From positions 1 through 63,824 of IMG/VR virus record IMGVR_UViG_3300036818_000131: DNA of 63,824 nucleotides; one strand, written 5' to 3'. The notes below the pieces were generated by a model. That model was not told the origin of the DNA. It searched no databases and worked only from the letters and a program-made list of their open reading frames with translations. Both the position numbers and the translations under genes were made by a program. Of this stretch, positions 25,923 through 55,889 are shown in pieces. Numbering within the stretch: position 1 is the stretch's first letter; each line of letters opens with the position of its first letter. Source of the stretch: a virus (taxonomy: Duplodnaviria > Caudoviricetes).

Positions 25923-26645
25923 TTATTGTTGCAGAGACAATTGCCAGTCGCGCTCGCCTCTGACGTAATCGCAATATCGACTGTGGTCGAAGGCATGCAG
26001 AACAAACGCCATGTCGTGCCAACCCCGGACCATGCCGAGCTTGTGCGACAAGCCGTTGATGCGCGCCAGTTTGCGCATGCCATGCGCATCGTTGAATTCG
26101 CGGATCGCCAAGAGCTCGCCGACATAGTCGCAATGGATCTCGGTCAAATCGCCGATGATGTCGTCGAAATGACAGTGGACCCGCGGCAACAGCAGCGCCT
26201 CTGACGCCTCGAACAGCGCCAGCGCCTTCGTGGTGCTGGAATAGTAATCGAGATCGAACGCGACAAACCCGACCGGCGGGACCGCGCCAAGATCCGTCGC
26301 CGCAGCGATGAATTCGGGCAGACAGTCGCCAATATCACCGAGCAATACCTGGGCGCGCCGCAGCCTTCGCCGCAGCGCATCCTGGTCCATCCGGAAGAAA
26401 CCTGGCCGCCAATTATAGGGCAGGTCCCGGTAATCGGTGGGTGGCGGCAACCCGGAGCCGAGATCGAAACCGACGACGGCAAAAGCCACACCGGTGTCGC
26501 GCTCGATCTCGAGGGCCGCCTCTTCCATCGCGACGAGCCCATTGCCGCCCGCGACCCCGAATTCGATCGCGGTGCACGCGGCAAGCCCCAGCGCCTTGGC
26601 GAGCGCTGCGGCTTGCTTCATGCCAAAGGTGTACTCATCGCGCAT
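25923..26645 (-). CDS. SAM-dependent methyltransferase-like protein (TylF/MycF-like fold)
   Basis: IEFGVAGGNG, VGFD.G.GLP, FVAFDLDYYSST, HFDD, GELLAI.EFN. Confidence 0.7.
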   Translation of the reverse strand: MRDEYTFGMKQAAALAKALGLAACTAIEFGVAGGNGLVAMEEAALEIERDTGVAFAVVGFDLGSGLPPPTDYRDLPYNWRPGFFRMDQDALRRRLRRAQVLLGDIGDCLPEFIAAATDLGAVPPVGFVAFDLDYYSSTTKALALFEASEALLLPRVHCHFDDIIGDLTEIHCDYVGELLAIREFNDAHGMRKLARINGLSHKLGMVRGWHDMAFVLHAFDHSRYCDYVRGERDWQLSLQQ

Positions 26646-26649
26646 TGCG

Positions 26650-26787
26650 TTACTCGCCGGACACCTCGGCCGGGTGAAACGCCGGCCACGGGCCGAGATC
26701 GGCCGGTGGGGCATCGGCCGTGGGGACCGCGCAGCCGGCGAGAACCAGCAGCGCGGCCCCGATGGCCGATAGGAACAATGCCCGCAC
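26650..26787 (-). CDS. Small proline-rich lipoprotein (45 aa)
   Basis: Manual translation MRALFLSAIGAALLVLAGCAVPTADAPPADLGPWPAFHPAEVSGE; LAGC lipobox; fills the gap exactly. Confidence 0.6.
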   Translation of the reverse strand: MRALFLSAIGAALLVLAGCAVPTADAPPADLGPWPAFHPAEVSGE

Positions 26788-26790
26788 CGA

Positions 26791-27543
26791 TTAGGCGTCG
26801 GACATCGCAATCGTGCCCCAGGCGCCGGAGCAATCGGCAAACGCCTGGAATTCGAGGTCGAACATCAGATAGTCGACGTTCTTGAACGGCATCCCGGTCT
26901 TGCTGGCCTTGCACTGGTTCAGCTTGATCGAGATCGTCTTGTTGGTGCCGCACACGTTGTAGGTATTGGAGCCGATCAATTCGAACGTCGTGCCCTGGCC
27001 CATGACCTGGTTCACGGCACTGATCTGCTGCATCGTCGTCACGGTGTAGCTGTAGTAGACGTCGAGCGCGACACTGACATCGCCGGCGGCGATCGTGTAT
27101 TGCCCGACCGCGGCAGCGCCCGCGATATACGAGCCAGTGGTCGCCCCGGACGGAACCGGCTGCAGCGGAATGCCGGTCGCGTGGTAGCGCACCCCGAGAT
27201 CCTCGGAGAATGTCGCGCCGTGCGAGACCGTGAAGGTCGTCGCGGCGGGTGTCACGGCCTCGGGTGCGGCGAGCTGGAAGCCGGAAGCGCTGCTGATGCT
27301 CTGGCCGAGGATCGTGTTGTTGATATTGCCGGCGGCGACCTGGGCGTATTTGCCCTTGCCGGTGATCTTCATCGCCGCCTGCGCGACGTCGACCGGCAAG
27401 GCGTATTGCCCGATCAGCTCTTTCAAGGTGCGGTCGATGTCGATTTCCATATCCTGCAATACGCCGAGCAGGGTCGGGATCTGATTGGCGGTGTCGGTAC
27501 GCTTGCAGAACCAGTTACCGACGCCAAAATTGTAGGCGACCAT
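26791..27543 (-). CDS. Major tail (tube) protein
   Basis: FG.G, LG.LQD..ID....KEL.GQY..PVDVA....KITGK; position upstream of the chaperone. Confidence 0.85.
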   Translation of the reverse strand: MVAYNFGVGNWFCKRTDTANQIPTLLGVLQDMEIDIDRTLKELIGQYALPVDVAQAAMKITGKGKYAQVAAGNINNTILGQSISSASGFQLAAPEAVTPAATTFTVSHGATFSEDLGVRYHATGIPLQPVPSGATTGSYIAGAAAVGQYTIAAGDVSVALDVYYSYTVTTMQQISAVNQVMGQGTTFELIGSNTYNVCGTNKTISIKLNQCKASKTGMPFKNVDYLMFDLEFQAFADCSGAWGTIAMSDA

Positions 27544-27834: not shown

Positions 27835-27864
27835 TGTGACTGTCTCCTCCTCGCGGGATTGCAG

Positions 27865-29376
27865 CTAAGCGGCGACGAGCGGCCGCGTCTCAGTGACAGT
27901 GGTTTCCGACTCGATCTCGGCTTCGCAAATGATTGACTTGACCTGGTCGATGACCCCCGGCCAATCGCCCGGGGTCTCCTGGGTCACCAGGCGCATCGAG
28001 GGGTACCACGGCGTGTCGTCGCGGCCAGTGAGCCAGCGCCAGCAGCGCCAGTTCGACAGCAATGCAATGGTCGGCCGCCCGAGGGCACCGGCGAGGTGCA
28101 ACACCGAGGTGTCGACCGAGACGACGAGATCGACCTGCATCAATGCCGCGGCGGTGTCGGCAAAATCGCCGAGGATCCCCGAGAGGTCGCCAATCAGCGA
28201 GCGCATGCCGTGGTTGGCGATGTCCGCGACCCGCTCGCCCTTTTGCAGTGACACAAAGGAGAGCTGCGGCAGATCGACCAATTGCAGCATGTGGTGGAAC
28301 GGCATCGAGCGCCGCATGTCGGGCACATAGCCCGAGGATCCGGCCCAGCACAGGCCGACCGTCAACAGGCACCCGGCGGGCTTGTGGATCGGGATCCCCA
28401 AACCATTATCCGGCGCGCGCAGATAGGGGGCTCCCGCCATTGACGCGCCAGGTGGCCCAAAGGGAATCGTCTCGAGGGTCAATCCGAGAAAGGCCGGCAC
28501 CGACAGCATCGGCGAGTGATAATCGGCGGGCGGCGGCGGCCCGTTGACTTCGGCGACCTCATCGGCGAGGCCGGAAATCGCGATCAGCCGCAACAAGGGC
28601 TGCGGCACCGCGGCGATGACATGCGCGCCGCGCTCTTTGAGCCACGGCAGAAAGCGGCAGAACTGGATCGTGTCGCCAAAGCCCTGCTCGTGGTGCACGA
28701 TGATGGTTCGGCCCGCGAGATCCTGGCCTTCCCAGCGCGGGATGCCGCTATCCCAGATCGGGTTTTTCTGCAGTTCGTCCCAGCGCGCTTCGTGCGCCAC
28801 AAGGCCTTCGCCGAATTGCCCCGAACCCAACAGCGCGATGCCGAGATCGCGGCGGATGCGGGCCTCCTGCGGGGCCAGTTCCAGTGCCGTGCGAAAGCAT
28901 TGCACCGCCTGCTCCGGCCGGCTCGCGGCCATCCGCGCCAGGCCCAAATTGTGCCACAGCCCGGCGAGCCCGAATTGATTGACCTCTTCGCCGGCGGCGC
29001 GGCGCTCGCTGGCGATGCGGATCGCCTGCATATGGCAACGTGCGGCCTCGTCATAGCGGTCGGCGCGGAACAGCGCATTGCCGAGATTGCCGAGATAGGC
29101 CGGGTTTTGCGGTTCGAGATTGACCGCGCGCTGCGCCAATGCCAATGACGCGGCGAACTGGCGGCGGTCCTGGACAATGCAGGCGAGGCTCGTCAGTGCG
29201 GCGTGATGGTTGGGGTCGAGGCGCAATGCCGAAACCAGGCAATGCTCGGCACCGCCGATATTGCCGCGCTGGTAATATTCCTTACTCGACAGAAAGAAAC
29301 GCTGCGCCGTCGGGACGAACTTGCCGTCCCCAGGGGCCATTGGGGACGGGGCAATCAGCGGTGCTTCGATCATCAC
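27865..29376 (-). CDS. TPR-repeat GT9-like (GT-B) glycosyltransferase
   Basis: TPRs, then W.G.DL.G.TI.V..EQGFGDTIQF.RF, VGL.WAG, DFADTAA....DLVVSVDTSV.HLAGALG, WRW...R.DTPWYPSMRL. Confidence 0.9.
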   Translation of the reverse strand: MMIEAPLIAPSPMAPGDGKFVPTAQRFFLSSKEYYQRGNIGGAEHCLVSALRLDPNHHAALTSLACIVQDRRQFAASLALAQRAVNLEPQNPAYLGNLGNALFRADRYDEAARCHMQAIRIASERRAAGEEVNQFGLAGLWHNLGLARMAASRPEQAVQCFRTALELAPQEARIRRDLGIALLGSGQFGEGLVAHEARWDELQKNPIWDSGIPRWEGQDLAGRTIIVHHEQGFGDTIQFCRFLPWLKERGAHVIAAVPQPLLRLIAISGLADEVAEVNGPPPPADYHSPMLSVPAFLGLTLETIPFGPPGASMAGAPYLRAPDNGLGIPIHKPAGCLLTVGLCWAGSSGYVPDMRRSMPFHHMLQLVDLPQLSFVSLQKGERVADIANHGMRSLIGDLSGILGDFADTAAALMQVDLVVSVDTSVLHLAGALGRPTIALLSNWRCWRWLTGRDDTPWYPSMRLVTQETPGDWPGVIDQVKSIICEAEIESETTVTETRPLVAA

Positions 29377-29681
29377 TGCTCGGTGGACTCTACTGGGTGC
29401 TCCGCGGGCTCGACAAACCCGACGGCCTCGGGCTCGGCCCCGGGCTCGGCCTTGGGCATGATCGCCTGCGCCACCGGGTCGACCGGGGCGTCGGCTTTCA
29501 CGGCCTCGGGCTCGACCGGCGCCGCCCCCTGTTCACTGCCAGGGGCAGGGACGCAGCCGAGCCGGCTCATTTCCGCGACGTCCTCGGCCGCGACGACAAT
29601 CACCCGCTCGGCCGCGGCGCGGTAGAACGGGCCGTGCGCGAGGTGGAATGACTGCCCGGCCACGGGGGCGAGCATTTTCAT
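29373..29681 (-). CDS. Small protein with short N-terminal domain and acidic Pro/Ala tail
   Basis: MKMLAPVAGQSF...; GAAGGA RBS; overlaps the GT start. Confidence 0.65.
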   Translation of the reverse strand: MKMLAPVAGQSFHLAHGPFYRAAAERVIVVAAEDVAEMSRLGCVPAPGSEQGAAPVEPEAVKADAPVDPVAQAIMPKAEPGAEPEAVGFVEPAEHPVESTEQ

Positions 29682-29912
29682 GGCAAGTCCTTCTGTTGGG
29701 GGGAGTGCGGGCAACAAGCCGACGAGGAATTTGCCGCCCGGCACATGCTCAATGGCGGCGCGGATCTGGCGGCACGGGCAACCCATGTGCTAAGATCTCC
29801 AGTGCTGCAGCCTGCGGTGGCGTGGAGCAACACGGCTAAGGCCGGCCGTCGACGCCTGGGATGGGCGCGCTACCGGCACGACCGGAACATCCCGGCCCGC
29901 AGTTGCGGCAGT

Positions 29913-31136: not shown

Positions 31137-31261
31137 TATTGCGCTCGCCTCTATCCGTTCCGAACCGCGGTGCAGGGAGAGCGCGGCTTTTGGTGGCGCC
31201 ACGGATCAAGTCTGTGGGCTAAAGGCCCACGGCATTGGCTGCGCCGCATGCAGCAGGAGTG

Positions 31262-31522
31262 ATGATGATCGAAGAGACACTGAGTGAGGAGAACCGCCGC
31301 CTTGTTCCAATGAAGCTCTATGAGATCGAGCTAGAGGTGAAGGTCGGCGGCATGCTGCGCGTGCCGGCAGCCGACGCGGTTGCCGCACGCGATCTAGCCA
31401 TAAGGCTTGTCGCGCTGACGGGTGAAGCGCTGAACAATGCCCTCAAATCCAATAGGCGGTTCACCTATCACCCAAAGCCGTTCGATATCATCACGTTGAG
31501 CCCACCCGTCGAGGTCGAATGA
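31262..31522 (+). CDS. Hypothetical protein
   Basis: AGGAG RBS; ATGA overlap with the DUF4422 gene. Confidence 0.55.
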   Translation: MMIEETLSEENRRLVPMKLYEIELEVKVGGMLRVPAADAVAARDLAIRLVALTGEALNNALKSNRRFTYHPKPFDIITLSPPVEVE

Positions 31523-32283
31523 AACTCAAGGTCTACACCGTGCACCACGCGGTACCGCAATGGTACATGGCCGATGACACCTTTGTGCCGTTCATTGTCG
31601 GCGAGGCCGGCGAAGGCCCGCTCGATCCGGTCTTTCAGACCGACCGCGAACCGCCGACCCTCACCGATCACCACAGCCTGGCCGAGATGCGCTGCCACTA
31701 TTGGGTGTGGCAGCATCTACCGCCAACGGCCCATGGTGGCGGCAATTATGTCGGCTTCCAGCATTACCGGCGGGCGTTCGCCGGGGAGATGAGTGCCGGC
31801 CGGGTCGCCGAGTTCCGGGTGAGTGCGGCCGATTGGCTGCGCCGCGAGCCCGGGCTGACGGCGCATTGGTTCAACGGAACCCTGAACCATGCCGACATCA
31901 TCGTGCCGCGCAAATGGCCGGCAGCACCCGATCTCGGCACCGATTATGCGCGCTCGCACAGTGCCGAGGATTGGCAGACGCTGCTGCACGCACTTCCCTC
32001 GCCCGAACTCACAACCCTGGCGGCGCAGATCGATTTCATCCACCGCGCCAATATGTTCGTGATGCGCGTCGATCTGTTCAATGAATACATGACCTGGTGG
32101 GATATGATCATGACCAGAGTGATGCTGGCGATCATCCCGCCGGCGGACGGCTATCAGTCGCGCACCTTTGGCTTTATGAGCGAGCGGCTGTTCACGATGT
32201 GGGTGACGCAATTGCGCCACCAGCGGCCGCAATTGCGCATCCTCGAATTGCCATTGGTCCTCGGCGATTTCCCCGCGATCTAA
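31519..32283 (+). CDS. DUF4422 (GT111-like) putative galactofuranosyltransferase
   Basis: E...HYWVW, YVGFQHYRR, DIIVP, NMFVM, YQ.R..GF.SERLF. Confidence 0.85.
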   Translation: MKLKVYTVHHAVPQWYMADDTFVPFIVGEAGEGPLDPVFQTDREPPTLTDHHSLAEMRCHYWVWQHLPPTAHGGGNYVGFQHYRRAFAGEMSAGRVAEFRVSAADWLRREPGLTAHWFNGTLNHADIIVPRKWPAAPDLGTDYARSHSAEDWQTLLHALPSPELTTLAAQIDFIHRANMFVMRVDLFNEYMTWWDMIMTRVMLAIIPPADGYQSRTFGFMSERLFTMWVTQLRHQRPQLRILELPLVLGDFPAI

Positions 32284-32639: not shown

Positions 32640-33299
32640 TCACGCGGTACCGGGGCAGGGCTCGGCCGCATAATACTCGCCCGGCGCAAACCGGCAGCCC
32701 ATGTTGACCGAACGCGCCCCAGATCCCAATGGACCCTCGCGGTAGAGCCGCACCGGCAGGCAGCGAAAATCGAAGCTGACCCGGCTCCAGCGCTCTTGAT
32801 TGATGTGGTTGCCGTGCTGCCGTGCCACCGCGTCGAACACGACGACATCGCCGGGATAGGCGTAGATCGGGCGCTCCCAGCGTTGGTCCTCGATGTAGAT
32901 CGAGTTGGTCTCGACCGCACTCGTCAATGGCAGCCAAAAATTCACTTCGCCGGCCGGGTGACCGTATTCGGCGTCGCTGTGCCAAGCGCCGACCGCGACA
33001 TTGCCCGGCAATTGCACGCGAAAGGTCGGGATCGCCTGGTAATAAAACGGCTCGCAGAATTGCCTGGCGACGAACTCGGTCACGAATCGCTGGTAGAGCG
33101 GACCCCAGACCTCGCGTGTCGCATAAAAGCGCTCGTGCCACTTGGTCCTTTGGTCATTCTCGCGCGACTGCAGCGGAAACGCATTTTCGCGCAATGCCGC
33201 CAGATCGACCTCGTCGAGGAAATAGGTGATCAGCGCCGGGAACGGGTAGCGCCGTAATGGATAGCTGAGCACCGCGTAGAAGGTGTCGGGCGTGATCAT
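32640..33299 (-). CDS. StrG-like / Fe(II)-2OG oxygenase-fold protein
   Basis: YQ.IPTFRVQLP.N.AVG.WHSD..YGHP.GE.NFWLPLT, HGN..N, R.SFDFR (HxD...H). Confidence 0.7.
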   Translation of the reverse strand: MITPDTFYAVLSYPLRRYPFPALITYFLDEVDLAALRENAFPLQSRENDQRTKWHERFYATREVWGPLYQRFVTEFVARQFCEPFYYQAIPTFRVQLPGNVAVGAWHSDAEYGHPAGEVNFWLPLTSAVETNSIYIEDQRWERPIYAYPGDVVVFDAVARQHGNHINQERWSRVSFDFRCLPVRLYREGPLGSGARSVNMGCRFAPGEYYAAEPCPGTA

Positions 33300-34066
33300 C
33301 GCGCGGCCTCGCCACCTTTGACGTGATCTATGGCGCGGATCGTGTCGCGGTTTTTCAGCATCTGCGCGATGAGCTGCGTCTTATTGACGACATAGGCGCT
33401 CGCCGCATCGAGCCGCGCAGCGATCTCCTCGTCGCTCAATACCCAGCCCCAATTGCGCACATCGTGAAAGCCAAAGCTTGGCCCTGGCGGGGAACAGGGG
33501 GGCGGCGGGTGGCCATGCTCGAACGAAAACCGCGCCGCCAGCTCATAGGGCGCAAAGCGGAACCCGCACCTCTCCAGCATCGGCCGGTAGAGCCGGCCGA
33601 GCGCATCGTCTTCCGGGTAGCGGTAGGGGAAGGTCTTCCGGTGTTCGGCGAGGAACTGCGCGAGCCGCAGCGAGCGCAATGAAAACCCGCCATTGCCGAC
33701 ATTCTGGCCGGGCGGATGCCAGGGCCAGGGTGCGCCGATATAGTCGTAATCGAGAAACGCCGGGTCCCACTGACCGGCATCGACGACCCAGCCATCCCAT
33801 TGCACGGTGAGGAAATGGCTGGTCTCGACCTGGTGCGGCACCTCGTACCACAGCGGCTGATCGGCGGCTTGCTTGCCGTGCTCGTGGAACGGGAACTCGC
33901 GCGCCCGGATCCAGTCGTACTCCGGCTCGCTGCCGCCGCCATCGGTCCACAACAGCACCGCGGCCGGGGTGATCTGGCGCAACGTGTCGCGCAACGCCAG
34001 GCGCGCGAGGTCCTGCGCGACATTGTCGATACACACGAGCGTGACCTCGGGCAGAGCGAGCAACAT
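33296..34066 (-). CDS. DUF5672 GT-A-like protein
   Basis: LP.VTLVCID, TSHFL.VQWDG.V, FLDYDYIGAPW, VGNGGFSLRS, PED, A.RFSFE, FGFH. Confidence 0.85.
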   Translation of the reverse strand: MLLALPEVTLVCIDNVAQDLARLALRDTLRQITPAAVLLWTDGGGSEPEYDWIRAREFPFHEHGKQAADQPLWYEVPHQVETSHFLTVQWDGWVVDAGQWDPAFLDYDYIGAPWPWHPPGQNVGNGGFSLRSLRLAQFLAEHRKTFPYRYPEDDALGRLYRPMLERCGFRFAPYELAARFSFEHGHPPPPCSPPGPSFGFHDVRNWGWVLSDEEIAARLDAASAYVVNKTQLIAQMLKNRDTIRAIDHVKGGEAAR

Positions 34067-34089
34067 GAGCGACCCTCCAGTTCTTTCGG

Positions 34090-34257
34090 TTAGGTGTGCG
34101 GGTGCGGCTGCTCCTTTTGCCACTCCTCGAGCAAGATTTGGGCCCGGGCACAAGCTGCCTTGGCGTCGGCCGGGGTCAGCAGACTCGCGGCGAGGCGTGC
34201 CACGCGAATGGCGGTGCTCTCGACTGTCGCGGTGTCGTTGATTATTCCGTCGGTCAT
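34090..34257 (-). CDS. Small hypothetical protein
   Basis: AGGA RBS; 55-aa helical ORF. Confidence 0.4.
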   Translation of the reverse strand: MTDGIINDTATVESTAIRVARLAASLLTPADAKAACARAQILLEEWQKEQPHPHT

Positions 34258-36646: not shown

Positions 36647-36652
36647 CGGCGC

Positions 36653-47880: not shown

Positions 47881-48477
47881 GTGTCTACGACTGATGCAAA
47901 CGTGAAACGTTGCGGCGGCTGCAGCCGGGGATTACCCCGTCAAGCCTTCGCCAAAAACCGAACGAAGCCTGACGGATTGGCAACGCAGTGCAGGCAATGC
48001 ACAGCCGAATATTTGAGTCGATACCGGAGTGAAAAACTGGAGCTGGTGAGGGCGGGCCAACGGCGGCACTACGTCAGAAACCGTATTGCCGTTCGGCGGG
48101 CCCAGCGTTGTTATCGCCTCGAAAACGTTGAGACGCTAAGAGGGAAGAAGCGCGCGTACAATCGAGTGTATTATCGAACGGAGGTCGGCAGATCGTCGAA
48201 GCGCAACGCCGTGCATCGTCGGCGCGCTCGCAAATTGGGCAATGGAAGTACCTTCACCCTGGCGGATTGGCACGCTCTCATTGCTCGATCGCCCCATTGT
48301 CATTGGCGCAAAACGCCCTTCGCGGCCACGCGGCGACCGACGCACGACCACGTCATCCCTCTATCGGAGGATGGCGAGGATACCCTGGAGAACAGCGTTT
48401 GCGCCTGCATGGAGTGCAATCTCCGCAAAGGGGCGCGGGCAATCGATCCGGTTACCGGCCAGGCGTTGTTGCTGTAG
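47881..48477 (+). CDS. HNH endonuclease with N-terminal Zn finger
   Basis: KRC..C, F.KN...DGL...C..C, FT..DW, DHVIPLS..G, N.V.AC..CN..KG; lower GC than its flanks. Confidence 0.85.
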   Translation: MSTTDANVKRCGGCSRGLPRQAFAKNRTKPDGLATQCRQCTAEYLSRYRSEKLELVRAGQRRHYVRNRIAVRRAQRCYRLENVETLRGKKRAYNRVYYRTEVGRSSKRNAVHRRRARKLGNGSTFTLADWHALIARSPHCHWRKTPFAATRRPTHDHVIPLSEDGEDTLENSVCACMECNLRKGARAIDPVTGQALLL

Positions 48478-48517
48478 CTCTCCCAAAGGCGTAAAGACGC
48501 ATCGGAGTGGCCTTGCA

Positions 48518-48757
48518 ATGAATGATCGAAAAGAAATTGTCGAAGCCCTCGGCGCCGAGCTGGTCGAGCTGATCGAGCGCGACAATAGCTTGCGCCTGCT
48601 GCAGGCCTGCGGCGTCGAGGTGGCGTTTGGTCCGACCGGCTGGCGTGCCGTGGTCGGCGGCCGCGAGATCAGCAATACCGATATCGACGTCGTTATCCGT
48701 CGCGGTCTCGCCGTGATACGCGGGCGGCGCGATCTGTGGCCGACGCCGCCGGTATGA
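48518..48757 (+). CDS. Hypothetical protein
   Basis: GGAG RBS; ATGA overlap with the next gene. Confidence 0.55.
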   Translation: MNDRKEIVEALGAELVELIERDNSLRLLQACGVEVAFGPTGWRAVVGGREISNTDIDVVIRRGLAVIRGRRDLWPTPPV

Positions 48758-49080
48758 CCGAAGAGCGTCGTGTCTGGATTGCGCAATGCCTGTGCCCGCA
48801 GCGGCATTGCATAATGGCGACCGCCGGCGAAGCCGAAAATCGCCGCGCCGCCGAGGCGACCGTCGGCGCACTTCTCCGAGCCAACGTCAAGGCGAAGCTG
48901 CTATCAGGCGAGTTCAATCCGTGGTGTGGCCTCTGCCACGCTGCGGCCGAGAGCTGGCGCTATGAGGTCGCCCGCTCGCGGTTCCGTTCGATGGCGGAAG
49001 CGACGCCGGCGTTAAAGGAGAGCGAAGGGCAGCAGCAGGTTACACGCGCGCTGTGGGGCGGTATGCGGCGCAGCGATTGA
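48754..49080 (+). CDS. Putative Zn-binding protein
   Basis: QCLCP.RHCI and NPWCGLC. Confidence 0.6.
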   Translation: MTEERRVWIAQCLCPQRHCIMATAGEAENRRAAEATVGALLRANVKAKLLSGEFNPWCGLCHAAAESWRYEVARSRFRSMAEATPALKESEGQQQVTRALWGGMRRSD

Positions 49081-49090
49081 GGGCGCCGAC

Positions 49091-49405
49091 ATGAGTGAAT
49101 TGCACGACATCGATCGGCGGGTTGCGGTGCTCGAGCAGATCGCGCGCGACACCGCGGCGGGACTGGCCGACATCCGAAGCGAGTTGCGGCAGATGCGCAC
49201 CGAATCCCGCACCGAATTGCAGGGGCTGCGCACCGAGTTCCGCACCGAATTGCACGAGTTCCGCACCGAATTGCAGGGGCTGCGCACCGACATCCGCGAG
49301 CAGAGTAGAGAGCTGCACGCCGATTTTCGTTGGTTGCTGCGGTTTACGATCGGCGGCTTTGTCGGCACGTGGGCGCTGCTCGCGCACGGGCTGCATTGGT
49401 TTTGA
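49091..49405 (+). CDS. Coiled-coil protein with C-terminal TM helix (DUF1640/XhlA-like)
   Basis: RV..LE head, RTE repeats, DFRWLL...ALLAHG.HW tail. Confidence 0.7.
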   Translation: MSELHDIDRRVAVLEQIARDTAAGLADIRSELRQMRTESRTELQGLRTEFRTELHEFRTELQGLRTDIREQSRELHADFRWLLRFTIGGFVGTWALLAHGLHWF

Positions 49406-49468
49406 GGGCACCCCTCAACGCGATTTGCGAACTCCTCAAGGACACCACCCTAACAGGGAGATCTAGCG

Positions 49469-50014
49469 ATGGTCGACTGGCTCGCGCCCACCAAATGCAT
49501 GTTCTGGCGCCTCGACGACAACCACACGCCGGTCCAGTGCGAGACCTTCGAGGAGTATTTCGCATCCGTCGAGAAGGACCATCAAGTCGCCGAGACGTGG
49601 ATCGCCGACGGGGTGCGGGTCTCGACGATCTTTCTGCCGGTCGGCCACGGCTTTATCGAGAACCCGGCATTCTTCGAAACGATGGTGTTTGGCGGCCCAC
49701 TCGACCATTGCCAAGTGCGCTATCGCACCTGGGACGAGGCGGCCGCCGGCCACGAGCGTCTGTGTACCGAAACCCGCAGGCTGCTGGCATTGCCGCCGGC
49801 CGAGCTCGAAGCCGAGATGAGCCGGCGAACGAGCGAGCGGTTCCGCTTCATCCGCGAACAGGCTTTGGCGGTCGGCGTGCCCGAGGAGATCGCCGATCAC
49901 CTGGGCCGCGCCCTCAATCAACGAAACGCCGGCCAACGAAACGCCGGCCAACGAAACGCCGACCAAACAAAACGCCGGCCAACAAAACGACTGCCAAGAA
50001 AGCGACCCGAGTGA
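49469..50014 (+). CDS. Conserved phage hypothetical protein with repeat tail
   Basis: VSTIFL, FETMVFGG, RY.TW.EA.AGH. Confidence 0.7.
   Translation: MVDWLAPTKCMFWRLDDNHTPVQCETFEEYFASVEKDHQVAETWIADGVRVSTIFLPVGHGFIENPAFFETMVFGGPLDHCQVRYRTWDEAAAGHERLCTETRRLLALPPAELEAEMSRRTSERFRFIREQALAVGVPEEIADHLGRALNQRNAGQRNAGQRNADQTKRRPTKRLPRKRPE
49919..49990. repeat. Degenerate 15-bp tandem repeat (~5 copies)
   Basis: CAACGAAACGCCGGC units. Confidence 0.85.
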
Positions 50015-50021
50015 TTGACCG

Positions 50022-50402
50022 ATGCCGGCGCTCTCCGAGCAGGTGAAGCGCGGCCTCAAGAGCCTGCGCTACCTCGCCGAACACGGTCCGCGCATGTCAC
50101 TGCCGGAAGTGCTCGGGCAAAAGCTCATCCCCAGCGTGCATTGCGCCGAACTTACCGTCGACGCAGAGATGTGGATCGTCTGCTACGGGCTCGAAGTGCA
50201 GCCGAGCGGCGTCTATCGCCATCTCAGCATCAGCAATATCGACCGCGGCACCCTGCCGTTACCGGAAACCCTCATGCTGATCGCTCGCGAAATGGGTTTC
50301 ACCGCCGAGCGGATGCAGGTCTCGGTGGCGCGGTATCCTAAGCGCGGTCTTGCCGTCCAAGTCATGGAGCCAATCACACAGGCTCGCGAAACACCAATCT
50401 AA
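50022..50402 (+). CDS. Hypothetical protein
   Basis: 126 aa; RHLSIS...LP.P...IA..GF motif. Confidence 0.6.
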   Translation: MPALSEQVKRGLKSLRYLAEHGPRMSLPEVLGQKLIPSVHCAELTVDAEMWIVCYGLEVQPSGVYRHLSISNIDRGTLPLPETLMLIAREMGFTAERMQVSVARYPKRGLAVQVMEPITQARETPI

Positions 50403-50499: not shown

Positions 50500-51429
50500 T
50501 CAGGAAAGCGTGATGCCGTAATAGGCGGCGATGTTCTGGCGGGTCGCCAGGCGGTTGGCCCCGCTGAGATACGACGGCCATCCCAAGAATTCCGTAGCGA
50601 CGCCGTCAAAAAACGCCGTCGCCGTACCAAGAAGATCTTCGGCCCCGATATTGAATTGTTCGGCGATTACTCCGGTATCCCCTGATGTAAAGTCGGCTGT
50701 TCGCGTCAATTGCGCGCCGTTCAATAGGGCGGTTGGTGACCCGGCGGACGCGTCCCACAACAACTCGAAGAGATAAAACTGACCTGTTTCAACGTCGGCA
50801 CTGCTGAAGCTGCCGCCGCCGTCATCCGCAAATCCGGCATCGTCCGCACCGAACGTAAGGCTGCCGGAACTTGCCGCCGATGACGATCCTATCTGAATGT
50901 AAATATCCGGACCGCTGCCGTCCACATTGGCACCGGCAATGTAGTGGATGCCACCATCAACGGAGCTCTTGGCGACAAAAAAGAAAGTGAAACTGCTGCT
51001 CGGCCATGTGGCGCTGCCGGGCGTGGTTAGGACGTTAGAATTGGCGGCGACGAATGAAATCCCTGGCTTGCTATTCAGCGCAGCGGCGTCCCAGCCCGGC
51101 TGATTTGCGTTCGTTGCCTGCGAAACATCATTGCCGTTGCCGCTTTGGTCCGTCCACGCCGCGACAAAGCCGTTTGCGGCGCCGATGAAGGACGAGATCG
51201 ACGCGGCCGGCGCATCGCCAGTCGTCGCATCACTGTTGTAAGTGTGTGTCGTGTCGTCGCTGTCGCGGCGGATCGTGTAAAGCGCCGAGCCGCGTTTGGC
51301 GGCCGACAATGCGCGCTGGCTGTAGGCGACGACCGCGCCGCCAACGATATCGAGCGGGCCGGTGTAGGACGACCCGTGCGGCCGCGCGATGGTCGCGATG
51401 CCCGGTACACTGAGACCGAGCCTGGGCAT
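50500..51429 (-). CDS. ConA/LamG-like (GH54 arabinofuranosidase-like N-terminus) spike/fibre protein
   Basis: YTGPLD.V...AYS.R.LS, IRRDSD, W.DQSGNG.D..QAT..NQP, NI..YYGIT; N-terminal MPRLGLSV. Confidence 0.7.
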   Translation of the reverse strand: MPRLGLSVPGIATIARPHGSSYTGPLDIVGGAVVAYSQRALSAAKRGSALYTIRRDSDDTTHTYNSDATTGDAPAASISSFIGAANGFVAAWTDQSGNGNDVSQATNANQPGWDAAALNSKPGISFVAANSNVLTTPGSATWPSSSFTFFFVAKSSVDGGIHYIAGANVDGSGPDIYIQIGSSSAASSGSLTFGADDAGFADDGGGSFSSADVETGQFYLFELLWDASAGSPTALLNGAQLTRTADFTSGDTGVIAEQFNIGAEDLLGTATAFFDGVATEFLGWPSYLSGANRLATRQNIAAYYGITLS

Positions 51430-51457
51430 GCTACTGCCACACCGCGACGATGTCGGC

Positions 51458-51814
51458 TTACGCCGCGTTGCCGGCCTGGTCGAGCCAGCCGGTCGAAGAA
51501 CGTTGCGTCCCGACAAAATAGACCGTCTTCGAGAGCGTCGTGTCGTAATAGGACATGCCCAACGAGGGTGCCGGGTTGAGGTTGTTCAAGGCGCCGGTGA
51601 GTGCCGTTCCCGGCTGTGGCGCGGGCCGATCGGTGGTCGCTCCGGTCGCCAGCAGCGGCTGCACCGTGGCATTACCGACGCCCTCGAGGGTGAGCGCGTC
51701 GGCCGCCGCGACACCGGTGATGATGCCGGCGCTGTTGGGGTTGTAGCGGGTGCCGCCGATGGTCACCGCCTGTCCAGTGGCGGGGATGATCGCGAAGACG
51801 TATGTCAGTGCCAT
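51458..51814 (-). CDS. Small virion decoration/fibre protein
   Basis: GATTDRP...G..YYDTTLSK...W.D..GN motif, common in fibre proteins. Confidence 0.65.
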   Translation of the reverse strand: MALTYVFAIIPATGQAVTIGGTRYNPNSAGIITGVAAADALTLEGVGNATVQPLLATGATTDRPAPQPGTALTGALNNLNPAPSLGMSYYDTTLSKTVYFVGTQRSSTGWLDQAGNAA

Positions 51815-51884: not shown

Positions 51885-54158
51885 TCACGCCACCCCCAGC
51901 GCAAACCCGAGCTTGAGCCGCGTCGCTGCCGCGTCCGGGGCGGTGTAAGCACCGATACTGAACCCCTTCGCGTCCTTGACCGGGTTGCCGTAGAAATCCT
52001 GCAGCCCGGGATTGATCGAATAGAGCGCCGCGAGATCGCGCCCGGCGCCGATCAATCGCGAGGCGCCTTGCAGATGATAGGCGGCCGGTGCCGGCGGCGC
52101 ATAGCCGCCGATCGTGCCGCCGCTGCCGGGATCGACCAATTTCGGGTCTTGAAAGAGCGAATGCGCTTCCTGCGACGACGCCGCCTGATAGGCGGCGAGC
52201 GAGCTATAGGTCGTGCTGTGGTAAGAGGCCGAGAACCCCGTCCCATAATAGCAGTTGCCGTCGAGCGTGCACGACTGATTGTCAAAGGACAGAGTGCAGG
52301 AACCGCTTGCTCGAATGAGATTGTTGGCGAAATAGCCGGTGGGCCCGACCCCGTCATTGTTGCCCTGCAGGTAGACGACTTCCGATCCCGGCTGATTGGT
52401 GCAATAGACCGTATTGTTGTAGATCGCGATGCTCTTCGGGCAGGTGCTGCCGTCGCCGCCGGCATTCCAGACGCTGATCTCTTCGAGGTGAAGCGCGGCG
52501 TTGCTTTCCAGGATATTGAACCGTGCCGTGCACCCGGTATGGGTATTGCCGCTGCCAAAATTGAAGAAGAAGATCCCGGCGCCGTCGCAATGATGGATGT
52601 AGCAGTATTCGACCGTGCAGTTGTGGCAATCGACATCGAAATCGACGCCGTCGCCATCTTCCGGCGCATTGACCGCGATCTGGTTGTAGACCTCGCAAAA
52701 CGAGACGACGCTGCCGGTCGTCCAGTTGTATTCGATGCCGGCGTTGCCTTGGGCCTCGTTGGCGCCGCAGTCGTGCACGTAGCACAGCGTAACCAAGCCG
52801 TTGTGGGAATTGCCGACAAAGATCCCGGTGCTCGACTGATAGGGGCTGTTCGACGACGCCGTGCCGGGGCAGTTGCCGACCGTACAGCCGGATATCGTGA
52901 CATTGTCGAAGGCGCGGGTCAGTGTGAAGGTGCCGCCGGTGCCGCCGCGCTGGCCGACCGAGCCGGCGATCCCAAAGCAGATGCCGGCGGTGATGTTGCT
53001 GCTGATGTCGACATTGTCGGTGCAATTCGTGACCGTGCAATTCTGCACCGTGACATTGCTGACCGCGTCGGCGGTGTCGGGGCAGGTCCCGAGAATGCCG
53101 CTGCGCCCGAACCCGGAGGCCCTCAGCCCCAAGAACGTGATGTCGGCGATCGCCCCGGCAGCACCGTCGCTCCAGAGGTAGGCGCCATTGTAATTGGCGG
53201 TGTCGTCGCCGGCGAAGGTCAGGTTCTGGAGCGTGATACTGCCGATGTTGTGCAGCAGCGCGCCATCCAGTCCGCTTGGCGCGATCGTCGCATTGCCGGT
53301 GCCATAGGAGTCGACGACCAATGGCGAGCCGGAGGTCGGCGGGGTCTGCGAGGAGTAATTTGTCGTGGTCAGTTGCAGAGAGCCGGGAAATGTCTGGCCG
53401 CCCTGAAACAACACCTGGTCGCCGGCCATAAAAACCGAGCTGTTGACCTGGCCGACCGTCTGCCACGGCTGCGCCAAGGTGCCGGGGTTGCTGTCATTGC
53501 CGCTGTTCGCGACATGAAAGGCGGTCGCGACTGGCGGCGTCCCGATCGCAAACCCGATAATCTCGTATGGGATGTCGCTCGCCGTGCTGGTCGTCATCGC
53601 TTGCGTGCTGCGGTACGACGGCGCGGTCGCGTACTCCGCGAGCCACGTCGTACTGACATACTGCGCTTGCGTCTGACCGGCGTTCAATCCGGACGAATTG
53701 ACATCGACGGCATAGCCGATCAAGAGATCGCCGCTGTTGGCGGTAAAATTGCCCGATGATTGCGTCGTCCCGGTCGTGCCGCTGGCGCCCGCGAAACCAT
53801 TCAGTACGGCATTGCTCGGAACACCGCCCCACTCGTCGCCGATCACGACGCCGAAGGTGACCCCGCCCGTCGATGAGGCCGAGAGGGTGATCGTCGAGGG
53901 GCTGTTGGTTACATCAAGGAGCCGGAATGCCACCCAGTAATAGTTTGAGCTGGCGAGGAACAGCGCCTTGACGACCGGGTAACTGTTGCCTTTGTCGTCG
54001 AGTATGCTGGTGATGCTGTCGGTGCCGTCATTGGTTCCGACCCAGCCGGCGACGCCGGTCACCGGGTTGCCCGAGGTCACCGCCGCGTCGAAGGTCAGAG
54101 TCAGCGTTGTGCCCGATTGCCCCGAGTGGGTTTTGCCCTGGACGTGGCTGTAGCTCAT
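51885..54158 (-). CDS. Right-handed beta-helix (pectin lyase-like) spike/depolymerase
   Basis: FHV.NSGNDSNPGT..QPW.T, GD.VLF.GG.TF.G, Asn/Cys ladder repeats, DGDG.DFD, YNNT.Y, DFYGN, SIGA. Confidence 0.85.
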   Translation of the reverse strand: MSYSHVQGKTHSGQSGTTLTLTFDAAVTSGNPVTGVAGWVGTNDGTDSITSILDDKGNSYPVVKALFLASSNYYWVAFRLLDVTNSPSTITLSASSTGGVTFGVVIGDEWGGVPSNAVLNGFAGASGTTGTTQSSGNFTANSGDLLIGYAVDVNSSGLNAGQTQAQYVSTTWLAEYATAPSYRSTQAMTTSTASDIPYEIIGFAIGTPPVATAFHVANSGNDSNPGTLAQPWQTVGQVNSSVFMAGDQVLFQGGQTFPGSLQLTTTNYSSQTPPTSGSPLVVDSYGTGNATIAPSGLDGALLHNIGSITLQNLTFAGDDTANYNGAYLWSDGAAGAIADITFLGLRASGFGRSGILGTCPDTADAVSNVTVQNCTVTNCTDNVDISSNITAGICFGIAGSVGQRGGTGGTFTLTRAFDNVTISGCTVGNCPGTASSNSPYQSSTGIFVGNSHNGLVTLCYVHDCGANEAQGNAGIEYNWTTGSVVSFCEVYNQIAVNAPEDGDGVDFDVDCHNCTVEYCYIHHCDGAGIFFFNFGSGNTHTGCTARFNILESNAALHLEEISVWNAGGDGSTCPKSIAIYNNTVYCTNQPGSEVVYLQGNNDGVGPTGYFANNLIRASGSCTLSFDNQSCTLDGNCYYGTGFSASYHSTTYSSLAAYQAASSQEAHSLFQDPKLVDPGSGGTIGGYAPPAPAAYHLQGASRLIGAGRDLAALYSINPGLQDFYGNPVKDAKGFSIGAYTAPDAAATRLKLGFALGVA

Positions 54159-54172
54159 CGCTCAGGCCAATG

Positions 54173-54412
54173 TCATTGCCACACGGCGACGATGCTCGCT
54201 GCAGTCGTCCCGCTGCTCCAGACCCGTCTGACCCGGATCGGGTGCCAGCCGGCCGGAGCGGCGGTAAAGGTCACGATCTCGCCATCCATCATCGTCACTC
54301 TGAGGTCGCCGCTGCCGCCGACATACAGCGCTGTCGTGAATTCCGGTAAATCGACACTGTCGCTGGGTGTGACCGCGACGGCATGCGGCACGGGATCGGA
54401 AAGTTCGGCCAT
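54173..54412 (-). CDS. Head spike base protein (RcGTA Rcc01079-like)
   Basis: P...AVTPSD..DL...T.ALYVG..GDL.V......VTF....G..PIRV.RV...GTTA..IVA. Confidence 0.85.
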   Translation of the reverse strand: MAELSDPVPHAVAVTPSDSVDLPEFTTALYVGGSGDLRVTMMDGEIVTFTAAPAGWHPIRVRRVWSSGTTAASIVAVWQ

Positions 54413-54413
54413 G

Positions 54414-55889
54414 TCAACCAAGCCTCTGTTTGAGTTCCCAATCGGGATCGGCGATCCGGCCGCGCACGAGATGGTGCAATTCGTGAAGCGGGCCGCTCCA
54501 ATCGTCGTGCGCCGCCTGGCGTAAGAGCCGCATGGTCGGGTACCACGAGGTCCGTTCGGTAGCAAAGCCCCAGCGCCAGCACGGCAGGTGGGGCAACAGC
54601 CCGATCACCGGCCGCCCCATCGCACCCGCGAGATGCAGGGGTGCCGAGTCGACCGAGACGATGAGATCGAGGGCGGCCATGTAGGAGGCGGTGTCGGCCC
54701 AATCGCGCAAGCGGCGCGAGAGGTCGTGGACCAGCACGCCGGCGCCGGCCGCGAGCTCGTGCGCCGCACCGTCGGATCCATGTGGGCCGGATCCATGTGG
54801 GCCGACCTGCAGGCTGTAGAGCGCCACACCGGGGATCGCGGCGAGCCCGACAAGCTCGCCGAGCGGCACACCGCGCCGCGCCGAGCGTTCCCCAAGCGAT
54901 CCCGGGAGCGACCGCGGCGCCCAGACGAGACCGATTGCGAGCCGCGTCCCGGGGGGCTTGTCGAGCACGACCGGCTCGGCGGTGAGATAGCGGGTCAATT
55001 TCGCCGACGGCAATTCGACGTCGAGATGCCGCAGGTAGGAGCAGACGGGCGAGTGATAATCCGCCCGATCGGGTCCATCGGCCGGCAGATCACCCTCGAG
55101 GTCGACGAGCTCGAGCATTGGGCAGGCGCGAAAGCGCGGCCAGGCAAAGAGCGGCAGCAGATCGCGCGGTGCCGCCAATGTGATGCGCCCCGCCCGTTGT
55201 GCCAGCGCGCCGAGAAAGCGCGCGAATTGGATCGTATCGCCCTGCCCCTGATCGTGGTGCACGAGGATGTGCTTGCCGGTCAGGTCCTCGCCCTGCCATT
55301 CCGGGATCCCGAGCTCCCACACCTGAGTGCGGCCGATTTCCGCAAAACGGTGCTCGTAGAGCGCCAGGCCACGGCGGTAATCGGCCGCGGAATTTTGATT
55401 TGGGGAACTTGCCTTGGCCAGCACCGGGTAGGCGAGATGGGTCAGCGCCCGCGCCCGCCGCCCCTCGTCAGTGCCGGCGACCGCACCAGCGGATTGCGTG
55501 TACCAATCCTCGGAGGCCACGAGCTCGCCGAGCGCGTAGCACACCGCACCCAAGTTGAAGGTGATCTCGGCATCGCCGGGGCGGCGCTGGTTGGCCGCTT
55601 CGAGCCACACCCGAGCCTTGTGGTAGCGACCCATCCGATAGAGGATGCAGCCGAGGTTTTTCAACGCGTCGGGGTGCTCGGGAGCGATCCCGACGGCCTT
55701 TTCCGCGCAGGTCAGTGCCGCCCCGTATTGCCCACGATCGGCCAATAGCGAGGCGACAGAGAACCAGGCCTCGGGCCGCCCAGCGCAATCCACTGGAGCA
55801 GCCCTAAGCCCGGTCGTGTAATAGGCCAGCGCGCCATCGAGATCGCCAGCGATGTGGCGGTTGAAGGCCGCCCGGAGTGCGGTACTCAG
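54414..55889 (-). CDS. Second TPR-repeat GT9-like glycosyltransferase (probable CTG start)
   Basis: TPRs; W.GEDL.GK.IL...QG.GDTIQFARF, DWADTA...LDLIVSVDS...HLAGAMG, WRWG....T.WYPTMRL. Confidence 0.85.
   Translation of the reverse strand: MSTALRAAFNRHIAGDLDGALAYYTTGLRAAPVDCAGRPEAWFSVASLLADRGQYGAALTCAEKAVGIAPEHPDALKNLGCILYRMGRYHKARVWLEAANQRRPGDAEITFNLGAVCYALGELVASEDWYTQSAGAVAGTDEGRRARALTHLAYPVLAKASSPNQNSAADYRRGLALYEHRFAEIGRTQVWELGIPEWQGEDLTGKHILVHHDQGQGDTIQFARFLGALAQRAGRITLAAPRDLLPLFAWPRFRACPMLELVDLEGDLPADGPDRADYHSPVCSYLRHLDVELPSAKLTRYLTAEPVVLDKPPGTRLAIGLVWAPRSLPGSLGERSARRGVPLGELVGLAAIPGVALYSLQVGPHGSGPHGSDGAAHELAAGAGVLVHDLSRRLRDWADTASYMAALDLIVSVDSAPLHLAGAMGRPVIGLLPHLPCWRWGFATERTSWYPTMRLLRQAAHDDWSGPLHELHHLVRGRIADPDWELKQRLG

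Follow-up and report, generated by a model that had tools for sequence, protein, structure and literature searches.

Eight carbohydrate-related genes within a phage structural operon

The virus record IMGVR_UViG_3300036818_000131 (63,824 bp, analysed as the whole IMG/VR record and called the window below) comes from an uncultured soil phage and is by gene content a siphophage fragment, and nearly all its convincing genes lie on the (-) strand as one long late operon. Interspersed with its head and tail genes are eight genes for putative glycosyltransferases (GTs) and other sugar-related enzymes, referred to here as the kit. They include two GTs fused to tetratricopeptide repeats (TPRs) and the enzymes of a predicted galactofuranose (Galf) pathway. 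A preliminary description of this DNA had listed these eight genes, and all of them were recovered with the same coordinates and strands, only the DUF4422 gene being on the (+) strand:

25923-26840, (-) strand: gene resembling class I S-adenosylmethionine (SAM) methyltransferases and perhaps encoding a sugar O-methyltransferase of TylF type (phrog_6608 'methyltransferase', E 2.9e-9)
27865-29376, (-) strand: TPR-GT9a, a TPR arm (residues ~20-205) and a GT-B domain (~206-490), with matches to Pfam TPR families and PF01075
29913-31202, (-) strand: Glf, uridine diphosphate (UDP)-galactopyranose mutase (UGM) (PF03275, 130.8 bits; NAD_binding_8, PF13450, 60 bits)
31519-32283, (+) strand: DUF4422/GT111-type putative galactofuranosyltransferase (PF14393, 95.7 bits, cut-off 25)
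32640-33299, (-) strand: 'StrG-like' protein resembling PhyH/2-oxoglutarate (2OG) oxygenases (TIGR04324, 42 bits, cut-off 150; no Pfam match)
33296-34153, (-) strand: DUF5672 protein (PF18922, 60.6 bits), modelled with a GT-A fold
38851-40215, (-) strand: putative glycosyltransferase of GT4-like (GT-B) type, lying between the genes for capsid and decoration proteins and that for the head-tail adaptor
54414-55793, (-) strand: TPR-GT9b, TPR and GT-B, in the head-morphogenesis part of the operon (Pfam TPR families and PF01075)

The identification is clear for five of these genes (both TPR-GT9 genes, Glf, DUF4422/GT111 and DUF5672) and weaker for the GT4-like, methyltransferase and oxygenase genes.

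Two TPR-fused glycosyltransferases with a GT9-like fold

TPR-GT9a and TPR-GT9b are 35% identical to each other. Their scores against PF01075 (Glyco_transf_9), 29.9 and 29.3 bits respectively (cut-off 22), come from matches confined to positions 159-210 or 178-208 of the 247 in the profile (residues 389-441 of TPR-GT9a), and the NCBIfam heptosyltransferase models gave 16-27 bits against cut-offs of 170-437. The AlphaFold2 model of TPR-GT9a (predicted local distance difference test, pLDDT, 92.5) consists of the TPR arm and the GT-B domain. Taken by itself, the GT domain matched in fold (VIA) the heptosyltransferase WaaF (1psw, Z 18.1, root-mean-square deviation, rmsd, 3.2, 245 aa), a Veillonella GT9 protein (3tov, Z 18.0), WaaC (2h1f, Z 16.7) and the protein heptosyltransferase TibC (4rap, Z 16.2), with rmsd values of 3.1-3.8 over ~245 aa for WaaC, WaaF and TibC. 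The whole chain matched the bacterial OGT 2jlb (Z 17.1 over 364 aa) and another bacterial OGT (Z 16.9; VIA), and Foldseek ranked SPINDLY first for it (E 2.9e-12), with OGTs at E 1e-10 to 1e-8; the TM-scores of these SPINDLY and OGT matches are low (0.25-0.39). Neither TPR-GT matched the Pfam family GT41 (Glyco_transf_41) at E<=0.01, and the PDB sequence matches to OGT were limited to the TPR region.

Residues G231, G233 and D234 of TPR-GT9a are invariant across 57 sequences, and TPR-GT9b has the same invariant G-x-G-D motif. The two motifs, G-x-G-D in the first Rossmann loop and D-x(4)-H-L-A-G in the second domain, vary little or not at all; they resemble GT9 motifs and may correspond to catalytic and donor-binding residues of WaaC. 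The model and the sequences together suggest an architecture of the OGT/FlmG type with a GT9-like catalytic fold, in which membership of GT9 by sequence is marginal and membership of GT41 is not demonstrable.

A small gene precedes each of the two TPR-GT genes:

29373-29786, (-) strand: small protein upstream of TPR-GT9a, unmatched in Pfam, PHROG and NCBIfam; its stop and the TPR-GT9a start overlap by 4 nt
55916-56611, (-) strand: Thr-rich protein (15% Thr) without a known family, immediately upstream of TPR-GT9b; candidate partner or acceptor

A predicted galactofuranose module

Glf aligned to 13 chains of solved UGMs with E values from 7e-53 (3hdq) to 2e-42. The alignments cover residues 23-427 and are thus full-length, with an insertion near residues 329-355 relative to the solved enzymes. 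Its score against TIGR00031 (200.5 bits) lies under the equivalog cut-off of 303.75, as for a divergent member. The product of the divergently oriented DUF4422 gene aligned to WbbM's N-terminal domain (6u4b, residues 29-281, E 2e-12). According to the available text of PMC12269835, the DUF4422 domain of WbbM founded family GT111, a Galf-transferase. The adjoining Glf gene is what argues for a putative UDP-Galf transferase activity of the phage protein. A Galf pathway supplied by the phage itself, as the preliminary description had proposed, is well supported by these two sequence matches. No close relatives of the DUF4422 protein were found in IMG/VR, and Glf and DUF4422 were found in 0/5 related contigs, the window itself serving as the positive control. 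One further feature overlaps this module:

31235-31522, (+) strand: small ORF (open reading frame) overlapping the DUF4422 start, with a third-position GC content (GC3) of 0.68 and no Pfam, PHROG or NCBIfam match; coding status uncertain

Predicted extending and tailoring enzymes

The DUF5672 protein has 2704 relatives at E<=0.001, and across 64 sequences its residues D137 and D182 do not vary. The top fold match of its AlphaFold2 model (pLDDT 86.8) is the Aspergillus fumigatus Galf-transferase GfsA (8yrl, Z 13.8, rmsd 3.6, 199 aa; VIA), followed by ~50 chains of GT-A and related nucleotidyltransferase enzymes at Z 9.7-12.7, among them A64R of chlorovirus PBCV-1 (2p6w, Z 10.9). This model supports the assumption, made beforehand, that the protein is a glycosyltransferase, predicted here to be of GT-A type, the sugar not being fixed by the fold.

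The GT4-like protein matched PF13692 (Glyco_trans_1_4) marginally (27.3-28.0 bits against a cut-off of 27), PF00534 and PF20706 under their cut-offs, and phrog_2170 'glycosyltransferase' at E 7e-5. Its family, of ~360-residue proteins, matched PF20706 (GT4-conflict) in 26/35 members and PF13692 in 22/35. Neither the protein nor the family profile gave anything significant against PDB sequences (E ~0.1-0.9).

The gene for the oxygenase-like protein overlaps at its start the end of the DUF5672 gene. The TIGR04324 model that it matches below threshold is the 'sporadic carbohydrate cluster 2OG-Fe(II) oxygenase'; the protein falls nearest to the Atlas StrG cluster (0.97/207), its structure neighbours in viruses are fused to DegT-type sugar aminotransferases, and PDB sequences gave no match. 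The methyltransferase-like gene lies just downstream of the tail-tube gene and overlaps it by 50 nt, so that its start is uncertain. The nearest Atlas clusters of its product are class I SAM methyltransferases (0.98/228) and TylF/MycF/NovP (0.95/202); there was no Pfam or NCBIfam match and no copy in the related loci tested.

Three of the ORFs are probably over-extended at their 5' ends, since homologues begin at about residue 23-34 of Glf, 30 of the DUF5672 protein and 88 of the GT4-like protein; alignment would place the real starts near 31136, 34066 and 39954, respectively.

The late operon and its host range

The genes among which the kit is dispersed are those of a siphophage head and tail:

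61693-63186, (-) operon: large terminase
59745-61691, (-) operon: portal
56667-57404, (-) operon: Mu-F-like head protein
45185-47857, (-) strand: prohead protease/scaffold fusion
43515-45029, (-) strand: major capsid protein (phrog_13692, E 7.9e-97), context gene and candidate acceptor
37986-35102, (-) operon: head-tail adaptor and neck proteins
26791-27543, (-) strand: probable major tail tube protein (phrog_8234, E 1.1e-29), context gene and candidate acceptor
14006-23761, (-) strand: tape measure protein, 3251 residues
RcGTA-like distal tail set: DUF2460, BR0599, NlpC/P60, Phage-tail_3 and Rcc01698_C

CheckV gives a completeness of 100% for the window record and of 19-41% for related contigs of 16-39 kb. 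Despite this value we read the record as a fragment, because ORFs are truncated at both window ends (1-323 and 63363-63824) and no replication genes were seen in the window; the true genome is probably much larger than 63,824 bp. A promoter and terminator scan of 24-42 kb gave no signal above shuffled controls, so that no transcript boundaries could be called there.

Capsid protein identity to Brevundimonas phages Strzyga and Polewnik is 40%, and to an annotated Arthrobacter phage capsid protein 26%; megablast found no cultured-phage match to 20 kb of the window. Relatives of the capsid protein number 363 in IMG/VR and 121 in bacterial genomes (66-83% identity, on contigs of metagenome-assembled genomes of up to 3.1 Mb). 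The viral comparison below rests on the best 80 of the 363 and the chromosomal comparison on the best 80 of the 121 (L165-L244; L numbers designate loci). Among the titles of these 80 genome relatives, 77 name Alphaproteobacteria or Stellaceae. An alphaproteobacterial host, as suggested beforehand, is supported because capsid relatives are common in the genomes of Stellaceae and other Alphaproteobacteria. The tube protein lies between the neck genes and the tape measure gene in 47/80 viral and 66/80 genome loci. The chromosomal copies of the capsid family may be prophages or gene transfer agent (GTA)-like elements.

A conserved core and a changing cassette among relatives

The kit is restricted to the window's own subclade (capsid identity >=83%). 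TPR-GT9a and b, DUF5672, the oxygenase, Glf, DUF4422 and the methyltransferase occur in 0/80 loci of the chromosomal relatives, 9 of which have a weak GT4-like match (28-31% identity), and none of the 70 listed features of Brevundimonas phage Polewnik is a glycosyltransferase. Relatives at ~80% capsid identity have a compact module without a glycosyltransferase between capsid and tube. The enrichment of sugar genes in the window is not due to chance. As a separate observation, viral-contig relatives with a capsid identity similar to that of the chromosomal copies carry compact RcGTA-like tail modules and short tape measures.

Within the subclade, part of the kit keeps its place. Where a locus spans them (L003-L010 and L022), the GT4-like, DUF5672 and oxygenase genes keep one order among the structural genes at their sides, except that the GT4-like gene of L008 is placed after the adaptor. 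The GT4-like copies are 62-76% identical in 9 close loci and 28% identical in L025, and 6 related loci have an oxygenase copy in the corresponding place, at 65-67% identity. TPR-GT9b recurs at the same position (61-63% identity), with its two flanking small genes, in the 3/3 loci that reach there (L004-L006). One of these small genes, encoding the 55916 protein, has 69-76% identical copies upstream of TPR-GT9b in all three and is absent from the 80 chromosomal relatives; it was found only together with TPR-GT9b. In L083 and L084, TPR-GT9a and its upstream small gene directly precede the tail-tube gene, despite differing surroundings, the N-terminal 80 aa of the 29373-29786 protein being 55-65% identical in these copies.

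The stretch from the oxygenase to TPR-GT9a varies between relatives. The window's version consists of DUF4422 and Glf, while that of L084 holds a Methyltransf_24 gene, a CmcI-type rhamnosyl O-methyltransferase gene, a GT2 gene, another methyltransferase gene and a muramidase gene. L005 has Methyltransf_24 and CmcI-type rhamnosyl O-methyltransferase genes and, wedged between two connector genes, a SIS_2 (GmhA-like) gene (16362-17033). Such a conserved core, with a decorating cassette that changes fast, suggests that an exposed glycan is under selection. The SIS_2 gene of L005, which is phosphoheptose-isomerase-like, may hint at heptose as the donor for the GT9-like enzymes of that phage.

TPR-GT9-like genes in other viruses and in cells

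The family to which the two TPR-GTs belong is very large, with more than 7000 matches among 8000 scored candidates, many of them named just 'tetratricopeptide repeat protein', and with at least 485 loci in IMG/VR and at least 655 in bacterial genomes. Neighbourhoods were sampled at 15 IMG/VR loci with full 8-kb flanks (GC 40-66%), chosen from the 80 listed, five ORFs per side being compared with PHROGs. Head, tail or connector genes lie near the TPR-GT9-like gene in 12 of these 15, a capsid gene in 10 (PHROG families 13692, 1328, 138 and 371) and a non-DNA methyltransferase gene in 7. Of the three exceptions, L112 is placed in a replication module and L130 in a ParA/invertase region; L086, from a relative of the window, has uncategorised neighbours. 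With 11 capsid probes, a capsid gene was found in 43/80 viral TPR-GT9-like loci, its distance to the GT gene ranging from 61 bp to 6.7 kb; the count is a lower bound, as many loci are short. Among cultured phages, Synechococcus phages S-SRM01 and BUCT-ZZ01 carry a TPR-GT9-like gene.

In 17 cellular genomes the neighbours of TPR-GT9 homologues are mostly housekeeping genes and little informative. An evident lipopolysaccharide (LPS) or O-antigen cluster surrounds none of the 17 homologues; a flagellin island holds one of them (L299), and two adjoin genes for RTX proteins.

Candidate acceptor proteins

Many virion proteins had been described as very Ser/Thr-rich. This holds in part: the structural proteins contain 16.2% Ser and Thr against 9.2% in the kit enzymes, which is a real but modest richness, and it does not track the kit: the middle region of the capsid protein, which is Ser/Thr-rich, is equally rich in kit-less relatives, and the lengths of the capsid and tube proteins equal those in kit-less relatives. 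No acceptor signature in the capsid, whether Ser/Thr content, length or a C-terminal tail, was found between kit-bearing and kit-less phages. Co-occurrence singles out the tube protein as the top acceptor candidate for TPR-GT9a, and the Thr-rich 55916 protein as that for TPR-GT9b. A predicted complex of TPR-GT9b with the 55916 protein scored 0.28 against a mark of 0.32 and counts neither for nor against binding.

The highest Ser and Thr contents of the window (28.7% and 25.7%) are found in two adjacent 495-residue paralogues (1267-2754 and 2767-4254, (-) strand; 60% identical, phrog_2448), which are probably tail fibres. Residues ~730-750 of the protease/scaffold fusion (45185-47857, (-) strand) make up a linker of low complexity, rich in Thr and Ala and containing T, A and G runs. 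Two further ORFs considered as Ser/Thr-rich virion proteins (24460-24972 and 42082-42525) were rejected, as their Arg/Ser-rich sequences look off-frame.

A possible virion glycosylation pathway and its alternatives

The reading that we favour, and to which we give an even chance, is that the kit glycosylates the phage's own virion proteins in the cytoplasm, before or during assembly. The two TPR-fused GT-B enzymes would each bind a structural protein by the TPR arm and attach the first sugar; the TPR-GT9a gene is placed by the tail-tube gene and that of TPR-GT9b in the head module beside the gene of the Thr-rich protein. The GT4-like and DUF5672 (GT-A) enzymes would extend the glycan, Glf would turn host UDP-galactopyranose into UDP-Galf for addition by the GT111-type enzyme, and the TylF-like methyltransferase and PhyH-like oxygenase might alter sugars or sugar nucleotides. 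The order of these steps (prime, extend, modify) is pure inference. We prefer virion glycosylation because it alone covers the TPR arms, the positions kept near tube and head genes, the repeated occurrence next to capsid genes elsewhere, the methyltransferases, the swapping of cassettes and the lack of a membrane component. The support for virion proteins as acceptors, which the preliminary description had assumed, is nevertheless indirect, coming from the OGT/SPINDLY-like TPR-GTs, the kept tube and head positions and the capsid adjacency in four families, and it is not matched by an acceptor signature.

Several observations weigh against this reading. The capsid protein has a Ser and Thr content of 19.5% in 7 kit-bearing phages and 18.4% in 135 relatives with no kit gene seen, and a Ser/Thr-rich C-terminal tail is absent from both the capsid and tube proteins. 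The likeness of the TPR-GTs to GT9 in sequence spans only ~30-50 residues, a profile of 33 GT domains gave no match to PDB sequences at E<=0.01, and TPR domains are also present in a capsule polymerase (8qoy). The 43 loci with a nearby capsid gene represent few independent events, because they fall into four capsid families only. Moreover, in all 28 loci of two of these families the TPR-GT gene is on the strand opposite to the capsid gene, so co-transcription of the two is not general.

The interleaving of the kit with structural genes, another part of the preliminary argument, is real but equally true of unrelated inserts in the same operon family, namely a C5 DNA methylase (L083), a muramidase (L084), helix-turn-helix (HTH)/winged-helix and Trans_reg_C proteins and an HNH endonuclease (window, 47881-48477). 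Position among structural genes is therefore weak evidence by itself, because unrelated genes occupy the same gaps. Similarly, the kit proteins have no obvious transmembrane (TM) segment, as had been noted (the highest 19-residue hydropathy values, 1.68 and 1.61, both lie on core strands of confident models), and it also held that no flippase, polymerase or Gtr family was matched in the 68 ORFs of this genome fragment, which encode no multi-TM protein. The lack of TM segments fails, however, as an argument for protein acceptors, as it does not separate protein-directed GTs from those with lipid-linked acceptors. WaaC, WaaF and WbbM are also soluble or peripheral.

This last point leads to the alternative that survives best, remodelling of the host envelope. 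Soluble GTs would act on undecaprenyl-linked intermediates of LPS, exopolysaccharide (EPS) or capsule at the inner membrane face, using host flippases or exporters, and the changed surface glycan (for example with Galf or O-methyl sugars) would block superinfection or the loss of progeny on debris. GT9, GT4 and GT111 are classically enzymes of lipid-linked polysaccharide or LPS, soluble or peripheral (general knowledge; for GT111, the available text of PMC12269835), which also counts against virion glycosylation, and so does the S-SRM01 homologue, clustered with sulfotransferase and GT genes beside tail-fibre genes in a layout that equally fits host-envelope genes. In addition, 88 phage records have an annotated glf, those of Rhizobium, Agrobacterium and Sinorhizobium phages among them, where authors have interpreted it as a gene of host cell-wall type, and other morons occur within the operon. 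We nonetheless consider envelope remodelling unlikely, though a serious contender, in view of the late-operon position, of kit-bearing relatives seen as viral contigs only, of the TPR arm with its OGT-like architecture, of the 0/17 cellular homologues in LPS clusters and of the recurrent closeness to capsid genes; an initiating transferase, flippase, polymerase or ligase is also missing from the fragment.

It is improbable, in our estimate, that the TPR-GTs glycosylate proteins outside the virion, such as host appendages, translation factors, defence proteins or non-structural phage proteins, for takeover or counter-defence. The TPR and GT-B architecture implies a protein acceptor without naming it, the cellular homologues in the flagellin island and beside RTX proteins would fit such targets, and so would the 'GT4 in conflict systems' match of 26/35 GT4-like relatives. 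The kept placement in head and tail modules, beside capsid genes in four lineages, speaks for virion targets instead, and a multi-enzyme elaboration of the glycan exceeds the needs of a simple inactivating glycosylation.

Of similarly low probability is the absence of any common pathway, the genes being independent morons with unrelated or no roles in permissive gaps of the late operon. Such gaps do hold the DNA methylase, muramidase, regulator and HNH endonuclease genes mentioned above, and Glf, DUF4422 and the methyltransferase are unique to the window among the relatives examined. Yet eight carbohydrate-related genes stand against none in the 80 chromosomal relatives (bar the weak GT4-like matches), matched pairs adjoin (Glf with the GT111-type Galf-transferase, DUF5672 overlapping the oxygenase), and the replacement cassettes of relatives are other sugar enzymes, not random genes.

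Known systems of DNA-glycosylating GTs have, to our knowledge, neither TPR arms nor Glf or GT111. That the GTs hypermodify bases of the phage DNA, for which phage enzymes are well known (PMC12619734, citing Pyle 2024, in its available text; see also PMC13326640), is very improbable given the structural location and a window without base-hydroxymethylation or nucleotide-metabolism genes.

Other features of the operon

The tape measure protein, with a Phage_lysozyme2 domain at residues 1151-1278, is long (3251 residues, against ~2000 in L083 and ~340-510 in relatives without the sugar kit), and a long tape measure and a TPR-GT occur together in both records showing both (the window and L083). 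By the rule of ~1.5 angstrom of tail per tape-measure residue, a tail of several hundred nm is implied. The head-tail adaptor (37120-37986, (-) strand) has 288 residues where kit-less relatives have ~215-250, which align only at residues 4-90 and 168/186-285; from this alignment the adaptor of the window's clade carries an insertion of roughly 80-100 residues. A Trans_reg_C (winged-helix) protein (37955-38473, (-) strand) lies between the GT4-like gene and the adaptor, and its homologue in L083 (5875-6543) is placed after the tube gene.

A (+) strand island (47881-50402) within the (-) operon holds the HNH/endonuclease VII-like gene (47881-48477; phrog_1035, E 1.8e-18) and four small ORFs without a Pfam or PHROG match. 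Further along (50500-51516 and 51885-54158, (-) strand), one 'virion structural protein' (phrog_10356) bears a domain like the GH54 alpha-L-arabinofuranosidase B (31.5 bits, cut-off 25). As arabinofuranose resembles galactofuranose, the GH54-like domain could conceivably be connected with the Galf genes. The portal and protease genes also enclose the gene of a right-handed beta-helix protein of 757 residues, in a place that is unusual for a depolymerase-like protein. Among the TPR-GT9-like loci, the opposite-strand groups have phrog_371 and phrog_138 capsids and a GC content of 40-47% and come from unrelated phages (L113, L152, L136, L138, L145, L161 and others), with the GT gene 61-2515 bp from the capsid gene.

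Relation to known systems

In mycobacteriophages with a glycosylated capsid and tube, the glycosyltransferase genes lie downstream of an O-methyltransferase gene (PMC11600133, citing Freeman 2023), the glycans are at the C-termini of capsid and tail-tube subunits (PMC12619734), and glycosylation shields the particles from antibodies (PMC11600133, PMC12619734), as far as the available text of these papers states. The window resembles this system in having phage GTs and an O-methyltransferase in or next to the structural operon, the capsid or tube being only proposed as the target here. It differs in its Gram-negative host of another phylum, in its enzymes (TPR-fused GT-B, GT-A, GT111 and Glf), in the lack of Ser/Thr-rich capsid and tube C-termini, in genes that are dispersed in the operon and not in tandem, and in being known from genes alone. 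Freeman et al. 2023 (Cell Host Microbe) reportedly saw little evidence of virion glycosylation elsewhere.

Among TPR-fused enzymes, OGT and SPINDLY (GT41) share the combination of TPR and GT-B and give the best whole-chain fold matches of TPR-GT9a, but the TPR-GTs have no Pfam GT41 match and their catalytic domain is closer in fold to the GT9 heptosyltransferases. WaaC, WaaF and TibC in turn provide the best catalytic-domain fold matches, and the Pfam GT9 motif is present in the TPR-GTs, which differ in having a TPR arm, a short sequence match and no LPS-core context among the 17 cellular homologues. The TPR N-domain of FlmG of Caulobacter crescentus binds flagellins and is required for their glycosylation (PMC7591256, available text). 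FlmG, a soluble cytoplasmic alphaproteobacterial enzyme with N-terminal TPR and C-terminal GT-B, is likened here by its description and not by sequence; by the same text it transfers pseudaminic acid to flagellin, while no nonulosonic-acid genes are present here.

A glf gene adjoining a DUF4422/GT111-type gene is also found in the Klebsiella WbbM and Kingella PamA/PamB modules (PMC12269835, available text); here the pair is phage-encoded in a structural operon, and no GT2/GT8 polymerising partner or export genes were seen. The glf genes of the alphaproteobacterial phages PhiM9 and Atu_ph04 were read as host-type genes in the available text of PMC4621102 and PMC6630229, which propose no virion role for them, and such genes are ~30% identical to that of the window. 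PhiM9 likewise is an alphaproteobacterial phage with a UDP-galactopyranose mutase, ~3.3 kb from a tail-collar (short tail fibre-like) gene; the annotation of the 15 kb around its glf names no glycosyltransferase and no TPR protein, most features being 'hypothetical protein'. A64R of PBCV-1 is comparable as a cytoplasmic GT-A enzyme encoded by a virus and glycosylating the major capsid protein, but belongs to a eukaryotic giant virus, and the DUF5672 match to it does not go beyond the general GT-A fold. In contrast to Gtr-type seroconversion (GtrA/GtrB/GtrC), none of the 68 ORFs encodes a membrane flippase, bactoprenol glucosyltransferase or serotype-specific membrane GT.

We found no reports of virion glycosylation in phages of Gram-negative hosts or by TPR-fused GTs, in a literature search without most subscription journals; as far as seen in the available sources, virion glycosylation by phage enzymes is established in mycobacteriophages only. 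The expectation that such a kit would be new for an alphaproteobacterial phage therefore holds in part: glf alone is not new, being already in print for PhiM9 and Atu_ph04 as a host-type gene, and what is new is the combination of two OGT-like TPR-GTs, Glf/GT111, GT-A, GT4-like and tailoring enzymes in one structural operon.

The window thus points to an enzyme set different from that of mycobacteriophages, with OGT-like TPR-GTs and a private Galf supply, in a phage of soil Alphaproteobacteria, and the data suggest that several unrelated phage groups, cultured ones among them, have a gene of the TPR-GT class beside their capsid genes. A wider and more tentative proposal, possible but short of an even chance, is that TPR-fused GT9-fold enzymes form a widespread, hitherto unrecognised class of phage protein glycosyltransferases that decorate capsids or tails in many lineages of phages of Gram-negative bacteria and cyanobacteria, with swapping cassettes building lineage-specific glycans, galactofuranose included. 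If so, virion glycosylation would be common outside actinobacteriophages. Should the enzymes act on the host envelope instead, the kit would be an unusually rich case of phage-driven remodelling of the host surface. The finding raises the question of whether phage particles are commonly glycosylated, and of how such glycans might affect adsorption, stickiness in soil and recognition by host defences.

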